Source: an uncultured Erysipelotrichaceae bacterium (GTDB lineage Bacteria; Bacillota_I; Bacilli_A; RFN20; CAG-826). From it: DNA of 64,000 bases. The stretch covers positions 1,457-65,456 of the forward strand of contig OMWW01000001.1 in the NCBI GenBank assembly GCA_900314865.1, in the 5' to 3' direction. The stretch's first letter is position 1; every line of letters begins with the position of its first letter. Both the position numbers and the translations under genes were made by a program. Below are positions 3,727 to 37,286 of the stretch, piece by piece. Below the pieces are notes generated by a model. The model worked only from the letters and a program-made list of their open reading frames with translations. It ran no database searches and was not told the DNA's origin.

Positions 3727-5652
3727 TTATTTATGTAATTTTTTGCGGCGATAAACTGCAACCACAAACACACAAGATACTACTGCAATAGCGGAGATAA
3801 CGATAATCATTGTAATGTTGCTATCACTGTTAATTGAATCAAGTAATCTGAATGAATTTGAAGTAGAAGCGCTGAATTGGCTTAAGTAAGCAACGTTTTG
3901 ACCAACGGTACCAACATAGTTATTACCTTCACCTTCACCAGTAATTGTGGATTTTGTTTCATACCAATTGCCTTCTGTAATGTGGTTATAGTCAACAGAC
4001 GCATTAACTACTGCAAGCGCATTAGCAGATAATTCAGAATATCTTGTATATAAAGCTTTCATTGCGTTACTATTTGCGACTGAACATGCATTTGTGTCAC
4101 CACTTCTAGCGGTTTCTAAATAGTCATGCACAAAATTAAATGCAACACCAAAATCTGTTTCATCACTACCAACATAGAAGTTTGGAACTTCACAGTAGTA
4201 AGTAGGATTCTCGCCATATTGTTGTTCAACACGATCAATTGGTAATCCTGGTAATGTGTCATATCTTGTGATTAATTCATCAAAATAGGATAAGCCCCAG
4301 TCACCACCAACACGGTAATCAGAAAGAGCAATTCTAACTTGATAACCAACGGTGCTATATAAGTAAGCAGACCAATCAATATAAGTTCTGGCCATTGTAT
4401 TACATCTGCAGCCACTTGTAGCAATATTGCTAACACCACCAGATGGATCGTTAAATCCCGGGTTATCAACGTGTGCTAATTCTGCTAATGTATCAGCTCT
4501 TAAAAGACTAATTCTTGTGGATTTTCCACCCATCTTGACAGAGACAAGACCTGTGCCACTTAATTTGAACGCGCTAGAAACGATTTTGTATCTGCAATCT
4601 TCGGCAACACCACTAGTGTCACCATTAAGGAACATATTGCCAGTTTTGTTCATAGGCATTCTTTCAGTGAAGTTTGCCTTAACGTCAGCACTCGAATAAA
4701 TGTTGCTGTAATCAATTGAAATTAAATCAACATCATTGCCAGCACGAGATTCGTTTTGATCATATGCCCAATCAGCAAGACGATAATTTGTTTCAAAGCC
4801 TGTATCAGCATCAGCTAATTCAACTTCTTTTGCTCTAACGGCATCATAGTAGCTATCAGCATATATAGTATTAATAACATATTCGTTAGCGTTTCTATTC
4901 CAATCAGAAGTGAATTCGTTTAATTTCATTTGAGCTTTATGAGCGGAGAAGTGTCTAGCGACATCTTCTAATTTTTGATTAACAAATAAACTACCAAAAG
5001 TGAATCCACCAAAGCTTGATGTTTTTTCATCTTTAACATAGACAGCGTATGTATCGTTTAATTTTAGTTCTTCTGGTAATTCAAGATAGAAGAACACCAT
5101 GTTACATGTAACAGGGGCATTAAATTTAGCATCCTTATCATCAAATGTTCCACTTCCATCAAATTTAGGACGTAAATCTACGACAACATCTTTATTTAAT
5201 GATGGTGACCAAATATTGATAAAAATCTTTCCTTTTCCAGCTTCTTCAGCTCCACCACCAAACAAGAACGAAATGTACCTACGACTATTATCAGTCACTG
5301 TTTGAGTTGGGCTTTGAATAGCACCAGTCCAGCCTTCTCCACCAGCCTTATGAATGGTGTCAGCAAAAGAATCCATGCCATTAAATGTTCTTTCTTGGCT
5401 ATCCCAGTTATTTGGATCAGGATTGCCCCACCAGAATCTTTCGTTTCTGCCTCTTAACAAATCACCGATGTTTTTTCCTTCAGAAGCATGAAGAACACTA
5501 AAAGTATCAGTAGGAACGTATCTTTCTTCTGTATCAGCAGCAGTTGTTGCTTTTACTTCACTAACAGCTTGCTTTTTAGTTGCCAAAGCACCACCTAAGC
5601 AAGCAGCACCAAGAAAAGCAGCGATGCTTAAAGAAAATAGTAATTTTTTCAT
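3727..5652 (-). CDS. Secreted surface protein with C-terminal TM anchor; paralogue of 1795-3651
   Basis: Real start probably ATG at 5652 (MKKLLFSLSIAAFLGAAC..) with a GGAGG RBS; the track ORF begins at an upstream TTG. C-terminal TM helix followed by YRRKKLHK; motif FKLSGTGLVSVKMGGKS resembles the SxKxGG motif of the CBM-like repeats in 7055-9568. Confidence 0.45.
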   Translation of the reverse strand: MKKLLFSLSIAAFLGAACLGGALATKKQAVSEVKATTAADTEERYVPTDTFSVLHASEGKNIGDLLRGRNERFWWGNPDPNNWDSQERTFNGMDSFADTIHKAGGEGWTGAIQSPTQTVTDNSRRYISFLFGGGAEEAGKGKIFINIWSPSLNKDVVVDLRPKFDGSGTFDDKDAKFNAPVTCNMVFFYLELPEELKLNDTYAVYVKDEKTSSFGGFTFGSLFVNQKLEDVARHFSAHKAQMKLNEFTSDWNRNANEYVINTIYADSYYDAVRAKEVELADADTGFETNYRLADWAYDQNESRAGNDVDLISIDYSNIYSSADVKANFTERMPMNKTGNMFLNGDTSGVAEDCRYKIVSSAFKLSGTGLVSVKMGGKSTRISLLRADTLAELAHVDNPGFNDPSGGVSNIATSGCRCNTMARTYIDWSAYLYSTVGYQVRIALSDYRVGGDWGLSYFDELITRYDTLPGLPIDRVEQQYGENPTYYCEVPNFYVGSDETDFGVAFNFVHDYLETARSGDTNACSVANSNAMKALYTRYSELSANALAVVNASVDYNHITEGNWYETKSTITGEGEGNNYVGTVGQNVAYLSQFSASTSNSFRLLDSINSDSNITMIIVISAIAVVSCVFVVAVYRRKKLHK

Positions 5653-5730: not shown

Positions 5731-7065
5731 CTAAAATTTAAATCTCGTCATCAAATTTAAATTTGATTGGATCTTAAGTTGTAGTAAATCTTCATCTTCA
5801 TTTGGGTAAATCAAAGATGTCATACTTACTCCATCAACAAAGAGTTCAACCGAAAATTTATCTAAAACAACATACAAAGTATGTTTTTCTAGCTTTTTAA
5901 GAGGCATTCTTCTAATTCCTTTAACGGAATCTGAATCTTTTTCTTTGCCAGCAATTTCGTCTCCTGAACGACTACGATTAAAGACCCATTCATCTTCAAA
6001 TAAAACGAAAGAAGTTTCGTGTTTATCTCCTTTTCTTAATTTTAAAGAGAACGATTTCAATCCTTCAATTTCGAGTCTATAGAAACCTGTCACCACGTGA
6101 TCCGTGAGGTTTGTGACGTTCTTGAGTTCGTATAAAACATTCTGAGGCATCACTGGAGTTTGAAGGAGTTCATTATTCACCACTTCTACTTTTCTAGGGA
6201 TGGTCATACTACCAGTAAAACCATATTTCTTACTTGGATTATTTCTATCCCACATATTCATCCAGGCAATGAGAATACCTTTATCCATAAAGAATTGAGG
6301 CGCATAGAAATCAAAGCCATAGTCAATCATGCCTTTTTTAAAGGACATGAACTTCTTATCTACAAACTCTCCAACCTCATAAATATTCGTATGTAAATTG
6401 TGATGTAAATAGCCTTCCACTGGTTGGAACTGTTCACAATATGTTAAAAGATTTAAATCTTTAATATAATCTGGGCATTCAATCATCGTGCCTTTGCTAT
6501 CTTCTTTTAAAATCGCAGTGACAAATTCCCAGTGTAATAAATCAAAGGATTCATATCTTAAGATGTTACCTCTTCCGTTTATTCTGCGAGCCGCCACTAG
6601 CATCACATATCGATCATTTTCAACAAAAACACATGGATCTCTAAAGTCATTTGGAGCAAATTCTTTTGGTAGTTTGTCTTCTCCAATTACGAGTCCCCCT
6701 TTAGTGAAATGGATTCCATCATCACTATAGGCAATGCATTGTTGTTGTCTAATCTTTTCTGGATCTTCATTATTAATGAAACCAGTATAGAAGATATATA
6801 GACGATCATTTACCACGATTGAAGAGCCAGAAAAACAACCATCCTTGTCAAACGAGTTTCCTGGAGTCAACGCAAAAGGAAGATGTTCCCAATGTAAAAG
6901 ATCTTTACTTACTTGGTGTCCCCAATGCATTGGTCCCCAATCTAAGCCAAATGGATGATGCTGGTAAAAAACGTGATAAAAGCCCTTATAGAAGATTAGT
7001 CCATTTGGGTCATTTATCCAGTTCTTGTCAGCGGTTAAATGATACAAAGGCCTATTATTCGACAT
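5731..7065 (-). CDS. GH32 beta-fructofuranosidase, cytoplasmic (sucrose-6-phosphate hydrolase / fructo-oligosaccharide hydrolase)
   Basis: No signal peptide; GH32 sequence blocks NDPNG, FYQHHP, RDP and EC; 444 aa. Confidence 0.85.
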   Translation of the reverse strand: MSNNRPLYHLTADKNWINDPNGLIFYKGFYHVFYQHHPFGLDWGPMHWGHQVSKDLLHWEHLPFALTPGNSFDKDGCFSGSSIVVNDRLYIFYTGFINNEDPEKIRQQQCIAYSDDGIHFTKGGLVIGEDKLPKEFAPNDFRDPCVFVENDRYVMLVAARRINGRGNILRYESFDLLHWEFVTAILKEDSKGTMIECPDYIKDLNLLTYCEQFQPVEGYLHHNLHTNIYEVGEFVDKKFMSFKKGMIDYGFDFYAPQFFMDKGILIAWMNMWDRNNPSKKYGFTGSMTIPRKVEVVNNELLQTPVMPQNVLYELKNVTNLTDHVVTGFYRLEIEGLKSFSLKLRKGDKHETSFVLFEDEWVFNRSRSGDEIAGKEKDSDSVKGIRRMPLKKLEKHTLYVVLDKFSVELFVDGVSMTSLIYPNEDEDLLQLKIQSNLNLMTRFKF

Positions 7066-23482: not shown

Positions 23483-23688
23483 GAAAAACCGAGCTTTACA
23501 CTCGGCTTACTTTGCATAAAGTGATTTGCTTTTCTTCCTTGATTTAATATTAGTTCATCAAAAACTATTTATTAACAATCCAGACAAAACCACAATCTTG
23601 ACAGGTGTTATTCCACCATTCAGCAATTGAATTTTCGTTATATTTAGTTTTAATTTTCTTAGAACCACATTTTGGGCAGGTAAAGTCT
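23483..23688. repeat. ~206-bp segment nearly identical to 28652-28858 (3' flank plus core of a decayed precursor copy)
   Basis: Direct comparison of the two stretches. Both contain the hairpin CCGAG-(6-8 nt loop)-CTCGG, the block TTACTTTGCATAAAGTGATTTGC and the out-of-frame core. Confidence 0.75.
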
Positions 23689-23790
23689 TTCTTTAGCGAC
23701 TTTTAATAATTCTTCTTGGTTTTTACACGCTTTAATTTTAGCGATTTGTTCTTCGCTTAATCCTTTAAGTAATTCATTTTTCATAATCAA
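23566..23790 (-). pseudogene. Decayed Nif11-like GG-leader precursor: leader intact (MKNELLKGLSEEQIAKIKACKNQEELLKVAKE), GG region deleted, zinc-ribbon core out of frame
   Basis: Own translation. In the +1 frame the 3' part reads TCPKCGSKKIKTKYNENSIAEWWNNTCQDCGFVWIVNK. Own box promoter at 23824-23846 and RBS AAAGGAG. Not in the ORF track (<60 aa). Confidence 0.6.
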
Positions 23791-25493: not shown

Positions 25494-26582
25494 TTATTGG
25501 TAGATGCTTGGTGGAATTACTTGTTCACGAACATCTTCCAAGAAGTCAATAACTTCAGTATAGACAGTTGGATCTTCTGGTAACCACATATCTCCTATGG
25601 GAGCACGAGCAGATTGGCCAGAACATTCAAAAGCCATGTTTGCGGTTTTAACACTTCCAGATTCTTCATCATATATCTCATTAAGATATTTAATTGTGTA
25701 TTTAAACTCTAAGAATTCACCAGTCTCTTTATCATATGTTAATTTTCCTTTAATATCGCCAGGAAAAATAACATCGATATATTCTTCTTTGATTTCATCA
25801 TTTTTATATACAAAGCTTAATTCAATTTTATCGTCTACTTCTTCTATTAATATATTGTGTCTAGTAATGAAGTTACTAATTTCTTGATCATTCATCTTCA
25901 CTAATTCTTTACAAGAAGAGAAATATAATCTATCTAAATATTCAATATTGCTTGGCGCGTCAAATAAATGAACGTTAGAAAAGATTTCTCTAAATGATCT
26001 AGTAGAAATAGAATCAAACAATAATTCTTTATCGATTTTAGCATTTAATTTTTGTCTAGATTCATAATCATAAGAATCACCATCAGTGACATCTAAAATG
26101 TTATAAACAAAAACATCTTCTTCATTGCTTTTTAAAGTCATTTGTTGATTTATACCTAAATTTTGATTAGTGGCGTAATCTCCACCAACCCTGGAAAAAG
26201 AAGACATCTTTGCGTTTTGAGTAATACGATATCCACCTTCGCCTTCTTTAATCGCATCAAAAACATTGACGTTACCATTTTCATCAACAACAGATTTATA
26301 TTCTTCACTAGATAAATCATAGTAAAAATCAAGGAATCCAAGACCAATATAATTAAAGTAACTTGATGATTTATCATCTTCATCTTTATAAACATCTAAA
26401 ACATCAAATTCTTGGGTGAACGTTGTTCCAATTGCCTTGGAGTGGAATTCAGATAAATCTTGTTTATTCAATAAAGTTTTTAGTTTATTAACTGCTTCAG
26501 TGTTAATAGTGTTAGGAACGGAATCATTACAAGACGCTAATCCGATAACAAGAGGCAATAATAAGAAAATATATTTTTTCAT
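25494..26582 (-). CDS. Lipoprotein of unknown function
   Basis: Signal peptide with lipobox GLASC; acidic extracellular domain. Confidence 0.5.
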   Translation of the reverse strand: MKKYIFLLLPLVIGLASCNDSVPNTINTEAVNKLKTLLNKQDLSEFHSKAIGTTFTQEFDVLDVYKDEDDKSSSYFNYIGLGFLDFYYDLSSEEYKSVVDENGNVNVFDAIKEGEGGYRITQNAKMSSFSRVGGDYATNQNLGINQQMTLKSNEEDVFVYNILDVTDGDSYDYESRQKLNAKIDKELLFDSISTRSFREIFSNVHLFDAPSNIEYLDRLYFSSCKELVKMNDQEISNFITRHNILIEEVDDKIELSFVYKNDEIKEEYIDVIFPGDIKGKLTYDKETGEFLEFKYTIKYLNEIYDEESGSVKTANMAFECSGQSARAPIGDMWLPEDPTVYTEVIDFLEDVREQVIPPSIYQ

Positions 26583-26592
26583 CTTTTACCTC

Positions 26593-28587
26593 CTAAACCA
26601 TGATTGTAACATCGCGTTTAAAACGATCTGAATTGAAATAGGCAGTATCTTTTTTATGGTCTAGTTCAATCTTTTTCTTACCACGATTATCTAAAGATAT
26701 AAATTGATAATACGCCCAATACTCACATCTATGACGTGGTTTTTTGGAATAAGATTTCATGGAGATGTTGTATTTTCTATTAATGGGCATAAATAGCTCC
26801 ATTTTTTCTTCAGTAGCATAGCTATAATAGCCAACCGCAAATCCTTGTTCGCAGTCTTCAATATCACTCTTACCTAAAATATGTCCTTCAACATTTACTA
26901 CACGTTTACCTTTTTTGTTATCTAATCTTAAGCCTAAATCATTAAAGCCAAAGAAATGCATTCTACCAAAATCAGCGTTATTTCTAAGTGGCACTACACT
27001 AATTTGATCACTATGAGAAGAATTATAGTTATCAATATAGTAACTATCCTGAGCTTGCATATGGGCTAAAGCCGTCTCGGCATAATGATTTTGAAAAATA
27101 TCACCCATATGAATAAAGATAGAAATTAATTCATTAGGTCTTTCCCAATAAGCACTACAAAGTGGTCCAAGTAATGCATTAACACAATTTTTAATTGCAC
27201 TAGCGTGTGGTCCAGCGAATTGTTGAATACATTTATCAAAATCTTTAAAATTACCAATAATTGAAGAAGACAAAATTGCTGCTCCTAGCATTTTAACGAT
27301 TAACAAAGGCGTAGAAGGCATGGAGCTTATTTTTTCATCTTTCATAACAAGCATCAATTCTTCTAATGGGCTTTGATATTTTTTAACAAAATCATTTCTT
27401 GAACCTAGATTAGAAGTTAGCTCTTCTAAAAACAGAGTTGTAGCAATATTAGAGTCATAATTTGCTTTTGTATTATCTTTAAGGTCACCAAAATCACCCT
27501 CAAACACATCAATAATCGCCGGAACAATTGTAATCATTTTGAGAAAGTCTTCTATTTTTAGACCATACATCCCAAAATTATCTGCAGTATATTTCACTTC
27601 ATCAGTTTGATTTACGATGTCAAATAAAGCTTTAAACACACGTCTATTACTTTCATAGTTAGAAGGGTCAAAGAATTTGGTGGTAATATATTTATCAACA
27701 CCAAAACGAGTAAACCCATATTCCGACATCCCAACTTTTGTTACGACATCATTAGGGTTAATAATATTAAAAATATTGCCATATAAAGCGTCTTTAGGGA
27801 GCTTAATGGTTTTAGAATTTACGTTTGCTCCCTGAGGGGCTTCAAAAGTATAAGTATAAATATCATCTTTATATAGTTGAACATTATCAAATACCTTTTC
27901 TCCCTTATCTAGATAAGAATCAAGTAACCCTGCGGTAATATTTATCACCGCTCCTCCTCGAGAAAACCCGGTTAACCATAATTTAATATGTCCACTGACT
28001 TGATTAGTTTCAATATAGTTTTTAATAAAGTTAATAGCTTTTATAGAAGCATTGTACCAACCTTCATGCATATAATCAGATTTGCTACCATCTCCTAAAT
28101 GCATATTATTGGCCCATTCACTGTAATATCCTCCAGATCTAGGAGCAACAGCAATTACTGTATAATCCGAAAATTCTTTTTTAGCTGCTGCTAAACCTAA
28201 AGAATCAAATCTCGCTGTTTGCTTATAGTCATCATTAGTAACAAATGAATTAAAACCTATAGTCTCTAATACTTCTTCAATATATTTTGGTTGAGAAAGA
28301 TACCACTGCTCAGTAAATGGAGGATAATCTGTATAAGTTGAAATTGATAGGCACAAAGAAGTAGTTGCTAAATGAGGATCATATTCATAGGCAGAATGTT
28401 CAAAATATGACTGGGAAAAATAAATATCACTTGTAAAAATTGATTTGCCTATTGGGCGTTCATTAGAAACATAAGAAAAAGTATATTTCTCAATCGGATA
28501 TGAGACATTCGCTCTTCGAGGTTCTACTCCACTAACTACACTAGCGGTTAACCCGGTTATCAGAAACAATAATCCAAATGCTTTCAT
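26593..28587 (-). CDS. Secreted alpha/beta-hydrolase, lipase/esterase-like (GxSxG)
   Basis: Signal peptide; nucleophile elbow LWLTGFSRGGAVINI (GFSRG); 664 aa. Preceded by a tandem TGTCACA box at 28628-28649. Confidence 0.5.
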   Translation of the reverse strand: MKAFGLLFLITGLTASVVSGVEPRRANVSYPIEKYTFSYVSNERPIGKSIFTSDIYFSQSYFEHSAYEYDPHLATTSLCLSISTYTDYPPFTEQWYLSQPKYIEEVLETIGFNSFVTNDDYKQTARFDSLGLAAAKKEFSDYTVIAVAPRSGGYYSEWANNMHLGDGSKSDYMHEGWYNASIKAINFIKNYIETNQVSGHIKLWLTGFSRGGAVINITAGLLDSYLDKGEKVFDNVQLYKDDIYTYTFEAPQGANVNSKTIKLPKDALYGNIFNIINPNDVVTKVGMSEYGFTRFGVDKYITTKFFDPSNYESNRRVFKALFDIVNQTDEVKYTADNFGMYGLKIEDFLKMITIVPAIIDVFEGDFGDLKDNTKANYDSNIATTLFLEELTSNLGSRNDFVKKYQSPLEELMLVMKDEKISSMPSTPLLIVKMLGAAILSSSIIGNFKDFDKCIQQFAGPHASAIKNCVNALLGPLCSAYWERPNELISIFIHMGDIFQNHYAETALAHMQAQDSYYIDNYNSSHSDQISVVPLRNNADFGRMHFFGFNDLGLRLDNKKGKRVVNVEGHILGKSDIEDCEQGFAVGYYSYATEEKMELFMPINRKYNISMKSYSKKPRHRCEYWAYYQFISLDNRGKKKIELDHKKDTAYFNSDRFKRDVTIMV

Positions 28588-28651: not shown

Positions 28652-28858
28652 GAAAAACCGAGATATTTCACTCGGCTTACTTTGCATAAAGTGATTTGCT
28701 TTTCTTCCTTGATTTAATATTAGTTCATCAAAAACTATTTATTAACAATCCAGACAAAGCCACAATCTTGACAGGTGTTATTCCACCATTCAGCAATTGA
28801 ATTTTCGTTATATTTAGTTTTAATTTTCTTAGAACCACATTTTGGGCAGGTAAAGTCT
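28652..28858. repeat. ~207-bp segment nearly identical to 23483-23688
   Basis: Direct comparison. Confidence 0.75.
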
Positions 28859-28973
28859 CGGTTAATTCAATGCCTTCTTGTTTAGCTAAAGCCAAAAGTT
28901 CCTCTTGGTTTTTGCAAGCTTTTACTTTTGTAATTTGTTCTTCAGTTAAACCTTTTAATAAATCTTTTTTCAT
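28728..28973 (-). pseudogene. Decayed Nif11-like GG-leader precursor: leader MKKDLLKGLTEEQITKVKACKNQEELLALAKQEGIELTE intact, GG region deleted, zinc-ribbon core in another frame
   Basis: ORF-track protein lacks the EQL..ISGGG segment. Its 3' half is identical at DNA level to the 23566-23790 copy, where the alternative frame encodes CPKCG...CQDCG. Confidence 0.55.
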
Positions 28974-28989
28974 ACGGAAAACTTATATT

Positions 28990-29274
28990 CTAGTTATCCC
29001 TCCAAGTTTTTCCACATTTTGGACAGGTAACTTCATTACCGTCTTTATCAAATTTACCGTTATATCCACAGAATGGACAATCAAATGGATTGAGTTTATC
29101 GCCAATATCGGAAACAACACTGCAGGCACCCCCGCCACTAATAACAGCTAATTGTTCGCTTGTTAATTCAACGCCTTCTTGTTTGGCTAAAGCTAAAAGT
29201 TCATCATGACTTTTACATGCTTTAACTCTCGCGATTTGTTCTTCAGATAATCCTTTTAAAAGTTCTTTTTTCAT
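28990..29274 (-). CDS. Nif11-like double-glycine leader peptide precursor with zinc-ribbon-type core (ACSVVSDIGDKLNPFDCPFCG...TCPKCGKTWRDN)
   Basis: Leader MKKELLKGLSEEQIARVKACKSHDELLALAKQEGVELTSEQLAVISGGG, then a core with CPxCG/CxxCG knuckles; RBS AAAAGGAG; box promoter 29314-29335. Confidence 0.75.
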   Translation of the reverse strand: MKKELLKGLSEEQIARVKACKSHDELLALAKQEGVELTSEQLAVISGGGACSVVSDIGDKLNPFDCPFCGYNGKFDKDGNEVTCPKCGKTWRDN

Positions 29275-29313
29275 GATTCGATCTCCTTTTCTAGATATAT
29301 CTTATCATATAGT

Positions 29314-29335
29314 TTGTCACAAAAGTGTCACAAAA
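29314..29335 (-). promoter_or_regulatory. Tandem box promoter: TTGTGACAcTTTTGTGACAAA (minus-strand sense) with -10 TATGAT
   Basis: Seen in sequence. On the minus strand it is preceded by the hairpin GGCCTCCTTGGAGGTC plus TTTTTTT (terminator of the upstream gene). Confidence 0.55.
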
Positions 29336-29418
29336 AAAGACCTCCAAGGAGGCCTAATCTATACTGAAAAGTTTTTTGTCAAATTTGTGATAAGTAACTT
29401 TGGATAACAGTGTCTATA

Positions 29419-29694
29419 TTATAAAGACCACTCATGGCCGCAGCTATTACATTTATAAGTACTACATCCACTTATTTGATAATCTGGCAATTTTCTAAAG
29501 TCTTTTGAACCGCAATTTGGGCATTTCATGGATGAAAAACATCCTCCACCACTAACAGCTTCAATTTGTTCACTAGTTAATTCAACGCCTTCTTCTTTTG
29601 CAAGTTTTAATAATTCTTCTTGGCTTTTACATGATTTTGCTTTGGCAATTTGTTCTTCGTTTAATCCCTTCAATAATTCTTTTTTCATATTCAA
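29419..29694 (-). CDS. Nif11-like double-glycine leader peptide precursor with 6-Cys core (CFSSMKCPNCGSKDFRKLPDYQISGCSTYKCNSCGHEWSL)
   Basis: Leader ...EGVELTSEQIEAVSGGG; own box promoter at 29729-29750. Confidence 0.75.
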   Translation of the reverse strand: MNMKKELLKGLNEEQIAKAKSCKSQEELLKLAKEEGVELTSEQIEAVSGGGCFSSMKCPNCGSKDFRKLPDYQISGCSTYKCNSCGHEWSL

Positions 29695-29728
29695 AGTTCT
29701 CCTCTGTTAATAGCATATTAGCACAGAG

Positions 29729-29750
29729 TTTGTCACAAATGTGTCACAAG
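29729..29750 (-). promoter_or_regulatory. Tandem box promoter TTGTGACAcaTTTGTGACAAA with extended -10 TGcTAATAT
   Basis: Seen in sequence. Confidence 0.55.
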
Positions 29751-29836
29751 AAAAGACCTCGCAAGAGGCCTAATCTAAGCTGGATAAGTCATTTTGTCGT
29801 GTTTTTACACTCGGCTTTTTTTATATGGCAATTAGT

Positions 29837-30124
29837 TTATTTGCTGGTATAACCTGTTTCGAACTCTTTACCACAATCATTACACTTGTATTTTTTCAAA
29901 ACTTTACCAGATTCTCTTAATTTAACATTAGTGCTTCTACATGATGGGCATGGCGGACAATTATCTGTGTTAGAACACGCTCCACCATTAACAGCTTCTA
30001 GTTGTTCACTAGTGAGTTCCAAATCTTCTTTTTTAGCTAAAGCCAAAATTTCATCAGTATTATTACACGCTCTTACTTTAGCGATTTGTTCTTCACTTAA
30101 TCCTTTTAATAAATCTTTTTTCAT
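29837..30124 (-). CDS. Nif11-like double-glycine leader peptide precursor with 6-Cys core (ACSNTDNCPPCPSCRS...KCNDCGKEFETGYTSK)
   Basis: Probable start MKKDLLKGL at 30124 (RBS AAAGGAGAAC); track ORF extends further upstream. Leader ends EQLEAVNGG; box promoter 30166-30187. Confidence 0.7.
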   Translation of the reverse strand: MKKDLLKGLSEEQIAKVRACNNTDEILALAKKEDLELTSEQLEAVNGGACSNTDNCPPCPSCRSTNVKLRESGKVLKKYKCNDCGKEFETGYTSK

Positions 30125-30165
30125 ATTCAAAGTTCTCCTTTGTTGGTTATATGTTAGCAAACTCT

Positions 30166-30187
30166 TTGTCACAGAAGTGCCACAAGA
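30166..30187 (-). promoter_or_regulatory. Tandem box promoter TTGTGGCACttcTGTGACAAA
   Basis: Seen in sequence. Confidence 0.55.
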
Positions 30188-30211
30188 AAAGACCGAGTTT
30201 TTACACCCGTC

Positions 30212-31048
30212 TTATAAACGTTTGATTGTTTTAATGATTTTTCTTTTTCTTCCTTGATATAATCCAGTGCCTTCATACATCAATTCAAATCCACATTTCT
30301 CCAACACTCTTCTGCTGGCTTTATTAGCCGCTAAAGCGATGCCGATTATTTGTTTGAGATTCGTGTTGTTTTTGATGTAATCCAAAAATAGATTACTAGC
30401 TTCAGTAGCGTAACCATTGCCGGTATAAATCTCAGCGATGTGATAACCAATTTCCCATCCTTCTTCTATTTTTACCAGTTGAACATAGCCGAGATTAGCG
30501 TTATCTTTCTTTCTTAAAACCGCGTAAACAAATGGGCCGCCCTCACTATCATAACAATTGATAATTTGGTTAACCACCTCACTAGCTTCTTCTAGTGAAT
30601 TAAATACTTCATCGGGAACAAATTTACGATTATTATCATCTTGCGAGTTTTTATAAACATCGTAGTACATAGATTGATTCATTCTGGCAATTTGCAATCT
30701 ATCGTTTTCAATAATGATTTGTTTATTACAAAGAATACATTTGTTAACGATATTTTTCCAATCTTGATAACGAGATAAGACTCTTAAAATATAAACACAT
30801 TTTGCAAGTTCGTTGACTTGATAAATAGCAACGTGATTTACGCAGATTAAATAGTGTGCATTCGTATAATCAAAAAAAGAATTAGCTATTTTAAGCCCAC
30901 CATAAGGGAAAGTTTCTAATTGTTCGAATCTATCAAATATTTTAAGGATGTATTGTTTAGCAATTTCTAAATTATCTTTGGCAATAAAAGGTTTGATGCT
31001 TTCAAGATCAGAAAAAGCACTATTGGTGATAATGATTTTATACGTCAT
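30212..31048 (-). CDS. ParE/RelE-family toxin domain fused in frame to a GNAT N-acetyltransferase domain
   Basis: Residues 1-~100 resemble ParE/RelE toxins (YKIIITNSAFSDL...YQVNELAKCVYILRVLSRYQDW). Residues ~110-278 are GNAT (acetyl-CoA motif IGIALAANKASRRVLEKCGFEL). ATGA start/stop overlap with the upstream Phd antitoxin gene. Confidence 0.7.
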   Translation of the reverse strand: MTYKIIITNSAFSDLESIKPFIAKDNLEIAKQYILKIFDRFEQLETFPYGGLKIANSFFDYTNAHYLICVNHVAIYQVNELAKCVYILRVLSRYQDWKNIVNKCILCNKQIIIENDRLQIARMNQSMYYDVYKNSQDDNNRKFVPDEVFNSLEEASEVVNQIINCYDSEGGPFVYAVLRKKDNANLGYVQLVKIEEGWEIGYHIAEIYTGNGYATEASNLFLDYIKNNTNLKQIIGIALAANKASRRVLEKCGFELMYEGTGLYQGRKRKIIKTIKRL

Positions 31049-31293
31049 AGTAATTTCTTTTTAGCGTCTTCCAAGGACATAACTCTTCCAGAATTAACGT
31101 CCGCAATTCCTTGATTGATTTCTTGCATTAATTTGATTGTTTTATAAAGTTCATCTAAAACATTTGAATCTATGATTGCGGTATCTTCTCTACCATTAAC
31201 TGTTATATAAACTGGTTGGCCAGTAGTTTTACATAGTTCACTTATTTCTTTATATCTATTTCTTAAATCTGCACTAGGTCTAATAATTGCCAT
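31045..31293 (-). CDS. Phd/YefM-family type II antitoxin
   Basis: MAIIRPSADLRNRYKEISELCKTTGQPVYITVNGREDTAIIDSNVLDELYKTIKL is the classic YefM/Phd N-terminal fold sequence; overlaps the toxin gene by 4 nt. Confidence 0.85.
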   Translation of the reverse strand: MAIIRPSADLRNRYKEISELCKTTGQPVYITVNGREDTAIIDSNVLDELYKTIKLMQEINQGIADVNSGRVMSLEDAKKKLL

Positions 31294-31478
31294 AAAAATA
31301 CCTCGTTATATCATAATTATATCATATGCAGATGTTTTTAAAGATTTAAAAAGCCGCTTTTTTACGGCTCTTGTATATAAGTCAATTTGATCTATAATTC
31401 TCCATCCACAATTATGTCATGTTTAAGCCTGCTCGCGAATAAGAAAAAACTGAGCGTTGCTCAGTTATACTCGTTTGT

Positions 31479-31769
31479 TTAATCGTAATTCTCAATTTTG
31501 TAGCCACAGCTTTGGCAGATATAATAGGTGCCTTTGTCTTTTAAGTTGTTGCTACCACATCTTGGACAGTCATATGGATTAATGTAATCTCCGATATCTG
31601 AAATAACGCTACAAGCGCCACCACCACTAGCAACAGCTAATTGTTCTTCAGTAAGTTCAACACCTTCTTTTTTAGCGAGTTTTAAAAGTTCTTCATGGCT
31701 TTTGCATGCTTTAACTTTAGCGATTTGTTCTTTAGTTAAACCTTTTAATAATTCTTTATTCATATTCAA
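31479..31769 (-). CDS. Nif11-like double-glycine leader peptide precursor with zinc-ribbon core (ACSVISDIGDYINPYDCPRCG...ICQSCGYKIENYD)
   Basis: Leader ...EGVELTEEQLAVASGGG; RBS AAAGGAGAAC; box promoter 31804-31825. Confidence 0.75.
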   Translation of the reverse strand: MNMNKELLKGLTKEQIAKVKACKSHEELLKLAKKEGVELTEEQLAVASGGGACSVISDIGDYINPYDCPRCGSNNLKDKGTYYICQSCGYKIENYD

Positions 31770-31803
31770 AGTTCTCCTTTATTAGTTAGATGCTATCACA
31801 ACA

Positions 31804-31825
31804 TTTGTCACAGATGTGCCACAAA
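31804..31825 (-). promoter_or_regulatory. Tandem box promoter TTGTGGCACatcTGTGACAAA
   Basis: Seen in sequence. Confidence 0.55.
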
Positions 31826-31990
31826 AAAACCTTGTAAGAGGCCTAATCTATGCTGGATGACGCTAGATCAAGCGTGGTTTCTATAGTTGTTTAACCAATC
31901 CCGTCCTGAGTTGTCCAAAACCCTTCGTCCTTTGAAGGCAAAAGAAAAACCGAGATATTTCACTCGGTCACGATAGAATGATTAATGATT

Positions 31991-32305
31991 TTACACTGGT
32001 GAACTATTGTCCGTCCATGTGTAGCCACACTTCTCGCAAGTGTACTTCTTGCCATCTTTTACAGGTCTGTTCGCACCACATTTTGGGCAATCAAACGGAT
32101 TGATTTTATCGCCAATATCAGAAACAACACTGCAGGCACCCCCGCCGCTAATAGTGGTTAGTTGCTCGTCGGTAAGTTCAATCCCTTCTTCTTTCGCTAA
32201 TGCTAATAATTCATCACTATTCTTACATGCTTTTGCTTTAGCGACTTGTTCTTCGGTTAAACCTTTTAGTAATTCTTTTTTCATAGAGTTTTTTACTCTC
32301 TCCAT
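31991..32305 (-). CDS. Nif11-like double-glycine leader peptide precursor with zinc-ribbon core (ACSVVSDIGDKINPFDCPKCG...TCEKCGYTWTDNSSPV)
   Basis: Likely start MKKELLKGL at 32284 (track ORF starts 7 codons upstream and overlaps the preceding gene). Leader ends LTTISGGG. No own box promoter, so probably co-transcribed with 32293-32580. Confidence 0.7.
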   Translation of the reverse strand: MERVKNSMKKELLKGLTEEQVAKAKACKNSDELLALAKEEGIELTDEQLTTISGGGACSVVSDIGDKINPFDCPKCGANRPVKDGKKYTCEKCGYTWTDNSSPV

Positions 32306-32580
32306 TTAAATCCGCAGCTTTGGCATTGGAATAGATTACCTTTGCCTTTCACTGCTTCAACTTTGTTGCTGCCACATTCTGGGCAATCAAACGGATTTAA
32401 AAAATCTCCAACATCTGAAACAACGCTACAAGCACCGCCACCACTAATAGCGGATAGTTGCTCATCAGTAAGTTCGATTCCTTCTTCTTTAGCTAAAGCT
32501 AAAAGCTCTTCATGGTTTTTGCAAGCTTTTACTTTTGCAATTTGTTCTTCAGTTAAACCTTTTAATAATTCTTTTTTCAT
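32293..32580 (-). CDS. Nif11-like double-glycine leader peptide precursor with zinc-ribbon core (ACSVVSDVGDFLNPFDCPECG...QCQSCGFKWRE)
   Basis: Probable start MKKELLKGL at 32580 (RBS AAAGGGG); the 47-codon N-terminal extension in the track ORF overlaps the box promoter at 32618-32640 and is unlikely to be coding. Confidence 0.7.
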   Translation of the reverse strand: MKKELLKGLTEEQIAKVKACKNHEELLALAKEEGIELTDEQLSAISGGGACSVVSDVGDFLNPFDCPECGSNKVEAVKGKGNLFQCQSCGFKWRE

Positions 32581-32617
32581 ATCAAAGCCCCTTTGTTGAA
32601 CATATCTTACCATATAG

Positions 32618-32640
32618 TTTGTCACAAATGTGCCACAAAG
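32618..32640 (-). promoter_or_regulatory. Tandem box promoter TTGTGGCACatTTGTGACAAA
   Basis: Seen in sequence; followed on the plus-strand side by GGCC-aacaaag-GGCC TAATCTA, as at 23410-23440. Confidence 0.55.
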
Positions 32641-32749
32641 AAAAAGGCCAACAAAGAGGCCTAATCTATTTAGATGAGTCATATTGTCCAATATTGAATA
32701 ATTCTCACAAAAACGGGACACAGGACTTATTTATTAAAAGAATAAAAAG

Positions 32750-33334
32750 TTATTGTTTAACTTCGATTCTAGTAATTCTCACATTATAAGTTAAAGCAAA
32801 AGTACTAGACATAATAGTAGGAATAAAAATTGATAAATACATCGCTAAATATGTATACCATCCAGAAGACATCATATGACCTAAAAAATCAAGTTTAGCG
32901 GTAATAGAGGAATAAATAGAAAATGCTAACGCCACTACTACCATTAATATAGATACAAAGCTATTAATTTTTTTGTCTTTTTGTTTTACTAAGAAAATAG
33001 ATACTAAGGCAAATAAAACAGTAAGTAGAGCAATTTGAACCGCATTTCTTTGAGGCAATAAGATATTTACCAATATCGCTCCTAAAAAAGGAATAATTGC
33101 TAATAAATAAGCAAATTCTTTTTTCTTATAACCAATAATTCCATACGTCATAATTGCTAAAACTGATAAAGTGATAAAGATATAAGAAGATATCATCCAT
33201 CCCCCAAGATCATTAATACTAATAAATACCAATAGATAAATAGAAGCCGCTAATAAGATGACCGATAAAATCATCTGCACAAATAACATTATTGCTTTAT
33301 CTTTTTTAATACCTAGTGTTTTAAGTGTATCCAT
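32750..33334 (-). CDS. Small polytopic membrane protein (5-6 TM) immediately upstream of the precursor array
   Basis: Hydrophobicity only; position makes an immunity- or export-accessory role conceivable. Confidence 0.35.
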   Translation of the reverse strand: MDTLKTLGIKKDKAIMLFVQMILSVILLAASIYLLVFISINDLGGWMISSYIFITLSVLAIMTYGIIGYKKKEFAYLLAIIPFLGAILVNILLPQRNAVQIALLTVLFALVSIFLVKQKDKKINSFVSILMVVVALAFSIYSSITAKLDFLGHMMSSGWYTYLAMYLSIFIPTIMSSTFALTYNVRITRIEVKQ

Positions 33335-33423: not shown

Positions 33424-35570
33424 CTATAAACCAGCAGGCTCTTCGATGTGAATTGTGTTATTTTGAGTATCTAAAGTAGCTTCCAATCTAAGATTCAATG
33501 TTGTTACAAACATAATAGGATAAGGCACATTAAACGAAATTCTTGTTTTTTCTTCATTCAGATAAATGCATGTTGTTCTAAATATAAGATCGTTATATTC
33601 AATTTTCATCTCGTTGTTTTCGCTTGAATAGAAGTAAATTGGATTATCCTCCGTGTATAGGAATGAATTTTCGTCAGGAGTGAAAACAGTGTCAGCGTAA
33701 GGATGATCATTTTCTATTTCGGAATGAGAAACAAGATTAAAATGTTTGCTATCGCTTCCATTTTCAAATAGGAGTCTACTGCACCATAATTGACCAAAAA
33801 GAATAATCTCGTGGTCATTATTTTCATCAAACTTATATGTACCAAAACGATTGAATGTATCGTTCGGATCATCAAAATAACAAATTGCGTGATATTTATT
33901 ATCTTTTGCTGCAATAGATTTAATATGGAATGTGTTTATTGCTCCAAACTTATCAAATCCACAGACTGTAACATTTTCCTTATTTGCTCTTCTGGCACCG
34001 AATATATTGTAGCGTCCGTTTCATCTCCGATGTCAGTCAAAACAACGGAAACAAATTGCTTAATTTTTCCATATGCTTCAATGTTTACATAGTATGGGTA
34101 AGTACCTTCAATCTTTGTGTCCACATAAGAAAGATCAACATCTGAAGCAGTTATACCTACATCTTTAGATGTGCCATCTTGATATTTAAAGGTAACATAG
34201 GCGTCACCACTATTGAAGTAACTTGCAAGATCAAATCCTGGTTCAATTTCTTCTTTGAATCCTTTATATTCAACAGACTTAATGTAATTAGATTCATTAA
34301 AAACTAGATATGTTCCAAATAGACGATATCTTGAATCTAATTTGAAAGATAATTCATGTTTCCCGACCGTAGTAAAAGGATTTGAATCTAACTGTAAGTC
34401 ACAGCTTTGTAATTCTTCAAACGTCATCGTTCTATAAAAGGAAGCGCGTCCAAATTGTCTTTGAGGATGACTGAGACTAAATTGGTCTATTGTTCCAAAA
34501 GCAATAATCTCAACAAATGACCAAATTAACACTGTATTGTCTTTTGGTAGAGTATTATCACTTTGTTGTCTAACGTTATCAACTGAGACCACATTATGAT
34601 GCGTGTCTAGTCTATAGTAACCAAATAATGTAAATTGATTGCTAATAGTTACAGTGTTTTTGTATGTAAAGGACAAGCACATAGATTGTTCGCCCTCGAT
34701 TGTAGTGCTTTGGTTATTATCAACAAATTCAATTGATAAATCAGTGACAAATCGATCATCCAATCTCACATTATCAAAGTGTGTTTGCCCAGCCACTTTT
34801 TTATCTAAATCAAACGACATAACCATATTGTGCAAATCTAAGGCGTTTTCAATAGATTCATTTCGCTTTCCGTAAATATAGTTGCCCGTCGATAAGTGAG
34901 CGGCTAAAGAAGCATCAGGATTATCAACAATATAGAGTTCGCAAGGATCTTCACCATAGAACGATTGATTGACAACGATATTTGACGCTGAAGGATTGCT
35001 ACCAGGTGCATCTGCAGCTACACAGTCATAATAAATTTCACAGCAAGAAAATGTAGCAATGTCGTTGTTATTAGTTGTTACTTGGAAGAAAGATGGCTTT
35101 AGTCCATCAAAATAAACATCACCGTTTGCGTCAGGTATTTCTTCACGTGCCGAATCAGTTGTCATAGACCAAGCATATTTAACTTTAAGATTATTGCCGT
35201 TTTCAAAATGAATTCTGGTTAAGCCATTAATTGGATCTCTAACAACACCCGATTTATCCATAAGGTTGCCAAACCAGCCATCTAAGCCTAATTTTACTTT
35301 TTCTTCATTTTTTAAATTTGTAATACCATTTTGAAGTAGTCTAACTGTGTTATTTCGATATGTTTTTACATCGACATAATAATATCCACCTACATCATGA
35401 GGTTCTTTGGTGAGTTGCTCATTTTCATAAGATAAATCAATTCTCATTGGGGTGTCGTAGGCATTATTTAGGACAAAATTAAGATTTTGGCTAAGCACAG
35501 AAGAAAAAGTGATTGTTCCAAGAGCTAAAACAAACGCTGATAGAAATACCACTAGTTTTTTCTTTTTCAT
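33424..35570 (-). pseudogene. Large secreted protein gene apparently disrupted near 33914-33936 (intact N-terminal 544-aa ORF 33936-35570, then the same domain continues in two other frames down to 33424)
   Basis: Own translation: sequence past the stop at 33936 still reads as a coherent domain in other frames (..NKYHAICYFDDPNDTFNRFGTYKFDENNDHEIILF.. then ..IENDHPYADTVFTPDENSFLYTEDNPIYFYSSENNEMKIEYNDLIFRTT..). Confidence 0.45.
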
Positions 35571-36004: not shown

Positions 36005-37039
36005 CTATTTCTTTTTTTCGACAACTGGTATTTCTTCTATTTTTGAATGTTCAATAAATAAATCGTAATCAGACACGAGTCTTTCTTCTTGTATAATTTG
36101 ATATTTCTCAAATTCACTTAACGCAAATTTTTCTGCCACTTCTCTCGAAACTTTCCCAGGGTTGTCCAACACTTCCCTACCACTTAATTGAAGCAAAATA
36201 TTAAGTCTCTTGATGTAATCATCCATCGTAAGTGGAATATGTCTTCTTGCCATATCCTCTCCAAAGTCTAAAAACATACTTACCAACAACGATAGAGAAG
36301 TTAATTCTTCTTTTTCTAAATAGTTCTTTGCGATAACAACATCACTTCTATGAATTCTTCCTTGCGGCGCACTATTCCAAGTTTTTAATCCCATATGATC
36401 TTTTGTTGCATCTGCACGATTCTTTATAATTTCAGGAGCGGTATTTCCTGAAACAGCATAATGCAATTTATTTTGTACCGTTTTAAAAAACTCAAATGTT
36501 CTATCGTCTTGGTTGTCATAGTCAATTGCGGTAGCGAATAAATCGGTTACTTTTTGATACATTCTTCTTTCACTTAAACGAATCAGTCTTATTTCTTCCA
36601 GAAGCTCATCATAATAATCCTTTGTTAAATAAGCTCCATTGGCTAATCTTACGTTATCCAAGGCATAGCCCTTTATTGTGTACTTTTTAAGAATATTAAT
36701 TGCCCAGCTTCTAAACTCTGTTGCTTTGGCGGAATTAACCCTAAAACCAACCGCAATAATCACTTCTAATGAGTAAAAGTTAATGTTTCTTTCAATTTGT
36801 CTATTGCCTTCGTTTTGAACTAATCTAAAAATTTGATGAGTTGCCTTGTCATCTAATTCATTAGATGAATAGATTTGATTAATATGGTAACTGACGTTAT
36901 TAGGCTCACAATCAAATAAATCTGCAATTGATTTTTGTGTAAGCCATAAATTGTCATCTTCTATAACTGAAGCAACAGTATTTTCTTTTGATTGATATGT
37001 AAATATAAGTGATTCAACTAATGCAATTTTATTTTTCAT
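36005..37039 (-). CDS. RhuM-family (virulence-associated, Fic/DOC-related) protein
   Basis: N-terminal block WLTQKSIADLF...YSLEVIIAVGFRVNSAKATEFRSWAINILKKYTIKGYALD is the RhuM family signature region. Confidence 0.75.
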   Translation of the reverse strand: MKNKIALVESLIFTYQSKENTVASVIEDDNLWLTQKSIADLFDCEPNNVSYHINQIYSSNELDDKATHQIFRLVQNEGNRQIERNINFYSLEVIIAVGFRVNSAKATEFRSWAINILKKYTIKGYALDNVRLANGAYLTKDYYDELLEEIRLIRLSERRMYQKVTDLFATAIDYDNQDDRTFEFFKTVQNKLHYAVSGNTAPEIIKNRADATKDHMGLKTWNSAPQGRIHRSDVVIAKNYLEKEELTSLSLLVSMFLDFGEDMARRHIPLTMDDYIKRLNILLQLSGREVLDNPGKVSREVAEKFALSEFEKYQIIQEERLVSDYDLFIEHSKIEEIPVVEKKK

Positions 37040-37210: not shown

Positions 37211-37286
37211 TGGTGGATCTGAGGAGGCTCGAACTCCCTACCTCATCGTTGCGAACGATGCGCTCTCCCAGGTGAGCTACAGACCC
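37211..37286 (-). tRNA. tRNA-Ala (G3:U70 identity pair; anticodon loop TTCGCAA gives anticodon CGC), CCA encoded
   Basis: Hand-folded cloverleaf: acceptor GGGTCTG/CAGATCC with G3:U70, D-arm TAGCTCACCTGGGAGAGC, anticodon stem CATCG/CGATG, T-arm GGGAG-TTCGAGC-CTCCT, 3' ACCA. Confidence 0.8.

Follow-up and report, generated by a model that had tools for sequence, protein, structure and literature searches.

A stretch of 64,000 nucleotides from an uncultured Erysipelotrichaceae bacterium (contig OMWW01000001.1, the window in the following) carries on its minus strand a pair of genes consisting of an antitoxin gene of the Phd/YefM family and a gene in which a ParE-type toxin domain runs in frame into a complete GNAT acetyltransferase domain. 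Our analysis suggests that this pair is a mobile phd-parE operon to which an acetyltransferase gene already resident in the genome became joined end to end, and that the acetyltransferase is carried along as a passenger, a reading to which we give somewhat better than even chances. The anatomy of the module, its conservation, the purifying selection on all its parts, the fold classes of its domains, its allelic states, its cis element and its mobility were observed directly.

The antitoxin gene phd (31045-31293) encodes 82 amino acids (aa) and overlaps by the four nucleotides (nt) ATGA, at 31045-31048, with the fusion gene parE::gnat (30212-31048), an open reading frame (ORF) of 278 aa. In the fusion protein the ParE-fold domain takes up residues 1-104 (30737-31048) and is followed by a short linker, CILCNK, at residues 105-110 (30719-30736), the limits of which were set by aligning homologues of either domain that occur as separate proteins. 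The GNAT domain, of the Acetyltransf_3 family and the RimJ/RimL/SpeG/MccE class, comprises residues 111-278 and, including the stop codon, extends over 30212-30718. A first-pass annotation made from the sequence alone had already proposed this layout, and its ORF coordinates, the ATGA overlap and the peptide strings it quoted were all recovered from the translations. The three family assignments it made also proved correct, as the scores lie above the curated cut-offs: the antitoxin matches PhdYeFM_antitox (PF02604) with 33.2 bits (cut-off 29.8) and the NCBIfam model phd_fam (TIGR01552) with 23.8 bits (cut-off 20.8), residues 5-97 of the fusion protein match ParE_toxin (PF05016) with 44.2 bits (cut-off 23, E 3e-11), and residues 122-255 match Acetyltransf_3 (PF13302) with 77.9 bits (cut-off 25.4, E 1.6e-21). 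Neither protein matches any of the PADLOC defence models, and no anomaly in GC content was seen at the module.

The fusion is genuine and widespread. In 11 assemblies, the window included, neither a stop codon nor a frameshift was found at the junction, which is open and conserved in all of them (...DWKNIVNK-x-x-L-x-N-K-x-I-I...). A protein search for the same architecture returned more than 120 distinct clusters at 90% identity, which are 82-92% identical, all 275-280 aa long, all equipped with both Pfam domains and derived from assemblies held at ENA, NCBI, JGI and Logan. A second search, seeded with the fused relative P0122 (48% identical to the window protein), added at least 21 divergent fused clusters of 276-279 aa that are 45-54% identical to P0122, so that in total more than 140 fused clusters are known. 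In our genome collection, ten loci with a full-length fused gene were found, all in metagenome-assembled genomes (MAGs) of rumen Erysipelotrichaceae/Bacilli from cattle, reindeer, water deer and other ruminants. Every part of the module is under purifying selection, with a median omega (Nei-Gojobori, 11 assemblies) of 0.17 for ParE, 0.12 for GNAT and 0.085 for Phd. The suggestion that two adjacent genes had been fused end to end is borne out, and the fusion is old and fixed, which rules out a sequencing error. In a library clustered at 50% identity, three representatives among the best 150 matches span both domains; most of the others are stand-alone GNATs of about 170 aa, the matches of which begin at query residue ~110. 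One fused protein is named "GNAT family N-acetyltransferase" at NCBI, and the JGI name is a double one, RimJ/RimL and ParE. The searchable literature yielded nothing relevant to a ParE-GNAT fusion, and the proteins sit in the public databases under generic names.

The origin of the fusion can be read from three loci with an identical neighbourhood, in which genes for Rce1-like, TraX, thioredoxin, RhuM/Fic, X, SHOCT, DUF6652 and Ham1p proteins and a 456-aa ORF are shared. Two of them (L019 and L020) carry phd and a fused gene (P0270), whereas the third (L015) carries a stand-alone GNAT of 168 aa (P0294). L015 and L019 are collinear with ~83% nucleotide identity, and the sole structural difference between them is a stretch of 97 nt in L015 as against 740 nt in L019. 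Within this 740-nt stretch lie phd with its promoter region, parE and the sequence that encodes the linker, a phd-parE surplus of ~640 nt over L015. The GNATs of L015 and of L019/L020 are 88% identical, and protein homology starts at residue 4 of the stand-alone enzyme. Because the loci are collinear and their GNATs so similar, the fused and unfused forms are two states of one gene. Judging from its length, the linker of ~6-9 residues is probably the former intergenic spacer between parE and the GNAT gene. No antitoxin-like gene was found beside the stand-alone GNATs, L012, L015 and L016 being among the examples. An 88-aa gene 5' of the stand-alone GNAT in L016 was considered as an unfused ParE or antitoxin gene and rejected, as it encodes a K/G/D-rich protein without a match to either family.

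Among the fused proteins the identities of the ParE and GNAT domains co-vary, with ParE evolving faster (when the window protein is compared with P0270, 42% identity versus 69%). A neighbour-joining tree calculated from the GNAT domains, without support values, unites the fused proteins in a single broad clade in which two to three stand-alone forms are nested. As the identities co-vary and stand-alone GNATs nest in the fused clade, the sequences fit a single old fusion event after which phd-parE was lost now and then. The most distant fused proteins, P0145 and P0382, are 33% identical to the window protein and have kept Phd, at 82 aa, as well as an intact ParE domain, while the PDEVF, EIGYH, GNGYATEA and NKAS motifs of their C-terminal domain have decayed and the residues of the fold core remain, so that judging from these motifs it looks like a pseudo-enzyme attached to ParE. 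Both proteins (P0145 at 1917-2726 of L022, P0382 at 1732-2541 of L023) have 269 aa and a full-length C-terminal domain, are 64% identical and are preceded by a phd gene. The GNAT can therefore live without the toxin-antitoxin (TA) half and the TA half without GNAT catalysis, which makes it very unlikely that the GNAT is a toxin in need of neutralisation by Phd. This speaks against a further proposal of the first-pass annotation, a second toxin of the AtaT/TacT/ItaT type: the domain belongs to the RimJ/RimL/SpeG/MccE class and aligns to ordinary stand-alone acetyltransferases of ~170 aa in relatives, 60-88% identical and without an antitoxin, one of them at the syntenic position.

The N-terminal domain is a ParE in fold as well as in sequence. 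An AlphaFold2 model of residues 1-108 (pLDDT 83) shows the long helical hairpin typical of ParE (helices 9-22 and 27-46) together with a sheet. Its top Foldseek matches are the solved ParE toxins 5ceg, 6x0a, 8c24, 3kxe, 5czf, 7r5a and 6xrw (target-normalised TM-score 0.76-0.81), among which are those of Mesorhizobium, M. tuberculosis (ParE1), Caulobacter (ParE1), E. coli O157 (ParE2), V. cholerae (ParE2) and P. aeruginosa; structures of RelE, YoeB and HigB rank below them. The sequence profile also matches the ParE chains 6x0a, 3kxe and 7r5a, and the top sequence match, 7etr, was labelled RelE/StbE by its depositors. In a library of 1.84 billion proteins, stand-alone ParE homologues of 103-105 aa stop 3-5 residues past the W97 helix, which is conserved, so that the fusion contains a full-length ParE domain. 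It retains the positions conserved in the stand-alone homologues, including D14 in helix 1 and the C-terminal W97 helix. Within the ParE motif RVLSHYQDW, residue 93 (codon 30770-30772) is His in most relatives and Arg in the window protein, in L006, in P0014 and in P0027; in the P0270/P0122 clade it is Gln or Thr, and Gly replaces R89.

In every clade the fused gene is accompanied by the antitoxin gene and overlaps it by 4 nt, and phd is present at all fused-gene loci with room for it. The N-terminal half of Phd is nearly invariant across clades, whereas variation in the last ~28 aa goes along with variation in ParE; residues 54-81 show a weak match of the RelB/ParD type. Seven nucleotides 5' of the phd start codon lies a ribosome-binding site, GAGG (31301-31304), which is kept in the alignment of relatives, and further upstream a 17-nt core, TGATATAATTATGATAT (31308-31324), in which TGATAT occurs twice, 11 nt apart, and which contains the -10 box TATAAT. 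The core is found exactly in 15 loci over every clade, 14-31 nt 5' of phd and even where the remaining flank cannot be aligned, in clades with fusion proteins that are only 33-65% identical; the copy in L003 has one mismatch. It is absent from all examined loci without phd and unique in the window (0.02 matches expected for a 21-mer), and a promoter-like site is predicted at 31350-31321. On this pattern of conservation, TGATATAATTATGATAT is probably a promoter with its -10 box overlapped by an operator for Phd.

The module has its own boundaries. Its 5' edge is a terminator-like G+C hairpin, AGCCGTAAAAAAGCGGCT followed by a T-run (31352-31369), which is kept about 75 nt 5' of phd in loci with unrelated flanks. 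Its 3' edge is a second terminator-like hairpin right after the stop codon of the fusion gene (30194-30209), which is conserved in close relatives and beyond which homology stops. Between these edges the unit occurs at many places. It lies between the genes for flotillin and glnA/glmS/pyrG in L004, adjoins cardiolipin-synthase-like and lipoprotein genes in L010 and genes for leucine-rich repeat (LRR) proteins in L017 and L022, and in L006 a tRNA-Ala(cgc) gene (5523-5598) lies about 150 nt 5' of phd. In L004 a direct repeat of 48 nt (5515-5562 and 6847-6894, 85% identical, spacing 1332 nt) brackets the whole module, each copy coming after a terminator hairpin; this repeat may have been left behind by an insertion or a duplication and so mark out the mobile unit. 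The hairpin boundaries, the varied neighbourhoods, the L004 repeat and the adjacency to a tRNA gene mark the ~1.2-kb unit as mobile. In addition, a further conserved stretch of ~130 nt, which contains repeats of 24 nt, separates the flank from the module hairpin in L004, L006 and L007. The short sequence TTAAACAYGACATAAT was considered as a flanking repeat and rejected: it is not enriched in the window (4 matches versus 3.9 expected) and brackets the module only in L004, where it is part of the 48-nt repeat.

From what is known of these families, the module would act as a self-contained type II TA operon, phd-parE::gnat, of ~1.2 kb. Phd dimers would repress the operon at TGATATAATTATGATAT, which overlaps the -10 box, and the variable C-terminal segment of Phd would wrap around the ParE domain and neutralise it. 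Upon depletion of Phd, the ParE domain would arrest growth, most likely through DNA gyrase as other ParE toxins do. To this operon a resident stand-alone GNAT would have been joined end to end when parE lost its stop codon and translation continued through the spacer of ~6-9 codons. The GNAT would thereby have become a co-expressed and co-regulated passenger and not a second toxin, and it may stabilise or attenuate the ParE domain.

Several observations weigh against this reading. According to a review, truncation or mutation of the last ~10 C-terminal residues lowers the toxicity of ParE (PMC10886550). As this toxicity-determining end continues here into a domain of 170 aa, the ParE part could be attenuated or inactive, and the toxicity of a ParE with an occupied C-terminus is indeed the main uncertainty: the W97 helix is retained but the GNAT follows it. 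As judged from the alignments, R89 and H93 of the RVLSH motif are replaced in the P0122/P0270-P0282 clade, and the fusion is kept in proteins down to 33% identity, even where the GNAT appears catalytically dead. Furthermore, the AlphaFold2 model of the full-length protein (pLDDT 92, about 82-85 in the linker) has a high predicted TM-score (pTM) of 0.86. The long retention of the fusion in spite of a dead GNAT, together with this pTM, suggests that the C-terminal domain does more than ride along, and both hint at an additional structural or attenuating role for it. Because of this long retention in the fused state and the confident inter-domain model, two other readings keep some weight.

The first, which we consider unlikely but which has to be taken seriously, is that of a domesticated TA system, in which ParE would serve as a non-toxic adaptor for the docking of Phd, and Phd as a transcription factor or partner that controls the amount or the activity of the acetyltransferase. 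The peptide bond that ties the toxicity determinant of ParE to the GNAT would be easily explained in this way, as would the lack of conservation of R89 and H93 in one fused clade, the omega of ParE, which is somewhat above that of the GNAT, and the high pTM, which hints at a rigid two-domain unit. The replacement of the upstream region of the stand-alone GNAT in L015 by the TA promoter region in L019 points in the same direction. However, ParE keeps all positions conserved in its stand-alone homologues and is under purifying selection, the toxin-binding C-terminal segment of Phd is retained and co-varies with ParE, and the P0145 clade keeps Phd and ParE next to a dead GNAT, which would make no sense if the module only regulated the GNAT. 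The second reading, which we regard as rather unlikely, is that of a coupled switch: the GNAT would acetylate Phd, ParE or the ParE target, so that the toxin would follow the acetyl-CoA status of the cell, or else Phd, by binding to the ParE domain, would gate the acetyltransferase. If true, this would be a TA-derived allosteric enzyme switch of a kind undescribed before.

A bifunctional toxin, in which ParE would poison gyrase, the GNAT would acetylate aminoacyl-tRNA or another essential target and a single Phd would neutralise both, is improbable. Both domains are intact and under purifying selection, and GNAT toxins exist as a class (PMC9561280, PMC5449658). However, the class to which this GNAT belongs is a different one. 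Its nearest solved relatives, by sequence and by Foldseek, are 3fbu, PA3944, MccE, RimJ, RimL, the bleomycin acetyltransferase BlmB, SpeG and the lasso-peptide acetyltransferase 9iy3; of these 3fbu, an uncharacterised GNAT of Bacillus anthracis, is the best PDB sequence match (E 1e-6), and the full-length model aligns to it with a target-normalised TM-score of 0.85. Neither the 36 PDB sequence matches at E<=1 nor the best 50 Foldseek matches include a chain of TacT, AtaT, ItaT or KacT, and no RHH/DUF1778 antitoxin adjoins the GNAT, Phd being the sole partner in the module. GNATs that are 60-88% identical live free of an antitoxin; one of them occupies the syntenic site and some fall inside the fused clade. 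The window GNAT is 60-70% identical to many stand-alone GNATs. The TacT/AtaT type was thus rejected on sequence, structure, partner and synteny, and on this evidence the fusion is probably not a double toxin.

The enzyme itself looks active, since in an alignment of 55 sequences, fused as well as stand-alone, the acetyl-CoA loop G212-Y213-A214 and N242/A244/S245 of the NKAS motif do not vary and E199/G201/Y202/H203 vary hardly or not at all; the loop and the NKAS motif are lost only in the P0145 clade. From these residues, the GNAT is predicted to be a catalytically intact, ordinary N-acetyltransferase of the RimJ/RimL/SpeG/MccE class. Elsewhere, in other Firmicutes, members of this GNAT clade are fused to an APH-type kinase, a NUDIX domain, a HAD phosphatase, a Mor-like helix-turn-helix (HTH) domain or a second GNAT (P0135, P0130, P0140, P0136, P0126 and P0131; L011 5473-6591). 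Such partners are the pattern of small-molecule-modifying enzymes, which again speaks against a toxin and suggests a small molecule, possibly antibiotic- or nucleotide-related, as the substrate of the clade.

The module of the window is embedded in an array of Nif11-leader peptide genes, four of which lie downstream (28728-30172) and three upstream (31479-32721) of it. The array consists of these seven tandem minus-strand genes for peptides of ~95 aa plus a 43-aa fragment at 23659-23790. The peptides have a Nif11-type leader (MKKELLKGLxEEQIAKxKAC...ELTxEQLxxxSGG) with its GG motif and a zinc-ribbon-like CxxC...CxxC core, and each gene has its own terminator (16 terminator-like sites versus 1.8 expected). 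Neither a C39-peptidase ABC exporter nor a modification enzyme was found among the window ORFs scanned. The array is followed on the minus strand by a 664-aa protein with a weak Lipase_3 match (26593-28587) and a 362-aa protein without a Pfam family (25494-26582); upstream of it lie ORFs of 194 aa (32750-33334) and 544 aa (33936-35570) without a family match. Similar peptide arrays are present in L003, L005 and L008.

That the module is an accessory of such arrays, with the GNAT acetylating the Nif11-leader/zinc-ribbon peptides or conferring immunity and the TA part anchoring this function in the array, is a reading in which we place very little belief. It would fit the position of the module in or next to arrays in the window and in L001, L003, L005 and L008, four of the ten full-length related loci, and structural neighbours such as the lasso-peptide acetyltransferase 9iy3 and the microcin C immunity enzyme MccE. 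However, nine loci (L002, L004, L006, L007, L010, L017, L019, L021 and L022) carry the module in unrelated contexts without Nif11 peptide genes in the fetched flanks, in the deeper clades it is array-linked at no locus, and the stand-alone orthologues are not array-linked either. The array-linked loci are close relatives (88-92% identity), some of them share the insertion site, and they may all stem from one ancestral insertion. As most of the other modules lie elsewhere, the link to the array is not a defining property; it is an accident of location, or at most specific to a lineage. The first-pass annotation had seen in the module an addiction module that stabilises the array, which does not hold as a conserved property, since the module is mostly found in other places such as beside housekeeping genes or a tRNA gene; by analogy, it could stabilise whatever DNA holds it, like any TA locus. 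A TA cassette in an integron-like array is not supported either: apart from the window, no more than 4 of the 10 loci show a link to an array, and the array units are ordinary genes with their own terminators, although no search aimed at an integron integrase or attC sites was made.

Finally, an assembly or sequencing artefact, in which a lost stop codon or a frameshift would have joined two genes, has nothing in its favour beyond the a priori possibility that comes with MAG data and is excluded by the same frame of 275-280 aa in more than 140 clusters from four sources and by a junction kept in 11 assemblies with purifying selection on either side, leaving it practically no chance.

Some further observations concern the surroundings of the module. 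An intergenic block that is 93% conserved between L015 and L019 was considered as a module element and turned out to be the unrelated COG3943 RNA (Rfam RF02941) of the neighbouring RhuM gene; this RNA (minus strand, 3574-3675 in L015 and 3256-3356 in L019) lies 5' of the RhuM/Fic gene. In the window, a RhuM-family gene (36005-37039) adjoins a tRNA gene (37214-37286), which is the only Rfam match there, and shows no COG3943 RNA match at the gathering threshold.

With regard to its significance, the proposed capture of an acetyltransferase by a phd-parE operon is of interest both as a natural experiment on the function of the ParE C-terminus and as a case of TA modules capturing neighbouring genes. 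Little is understood about ParE toxins, and a free C-terminal tail is believed to be required for their toxicity; a conserved ParE family in which this tail is permanently extended by an enzyme of 170 aa is thus a natural test of this idea. Nature also provides the controls, namely the GNAT without phd-parE at the syntenic locus, Phd and ParE with a dead GNAT, and ParE homologues that stand alone. As to annotation, the NCBI label "GNAT family N-acetyltransferase" conceals a TA module, and it would be wrong to list these proteins among the GNAT-type toxins. The functional link between the module and the peptide array, tempting as it was, lacks support and can be dropped.

Among known systems, the module is closest to the type II TA systems of the Phd/YefM-ParE kind (ParD-ParE, PaaA2-ParE2, YefM-YoeB). 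It shares with them the antitoxin gene in first position, the 4-nt overlap with the toxin gene, the Phd/YefM family, the ParE fold, a conserved repeat element in the putative promoter and the nature of a small, self-contained unit found at many genomic sites. ParE-type toxins are small single-domain proteins of ~90-110 aa with a free C-terminal tail. The toxin described here differs in that it has 278 aa instead of about 100, and in that the end of ParE, free in other members and required there for toxicity, runs into a complete GNAT. By sequence, predicted fold and operon structure the module thus belongs with the Phd/YefM-ParE systems in everything except a single-domain toxin. With the GNAT-RHH systems (TacAT, AtaRT, ItaRT, KacAT and PacTA) it has in common an acetyltransferase of the GNAT fold in a type II TA operon; in contrast to them, the enzyme is of the Acetyltransf_3 class, an RHH/DUF1778 antitoxin is lacking and its orthologues live without an antitoxin, and because of these three differences in defining features it does not belong to that toxin family. 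The GNAT half resembles the stand-alone enzymes RimJ, RimL, SpeG, MccE and PA3944 in fold, acetyl-CoA motifs and a size of ~170 aa, with 60-88% identity to stand-alone enzymes of related rumen Firmicutes, but unlike these it is covalently joined to ParE and placed under a predicted TA promoter. A precedent for the fusion of a RelE/ParE-fold domain to another functional domain is provided by Cami1 (CARF-RelE, PDB 8phb). Cami1, however, is a ribosome-dependent RNase that is activated by cyclic oligoadenylate through an N-terminal sensor, whereas in the present module the enzyme partner is C-terminal and a classical antitoxin is encoded alongside it.

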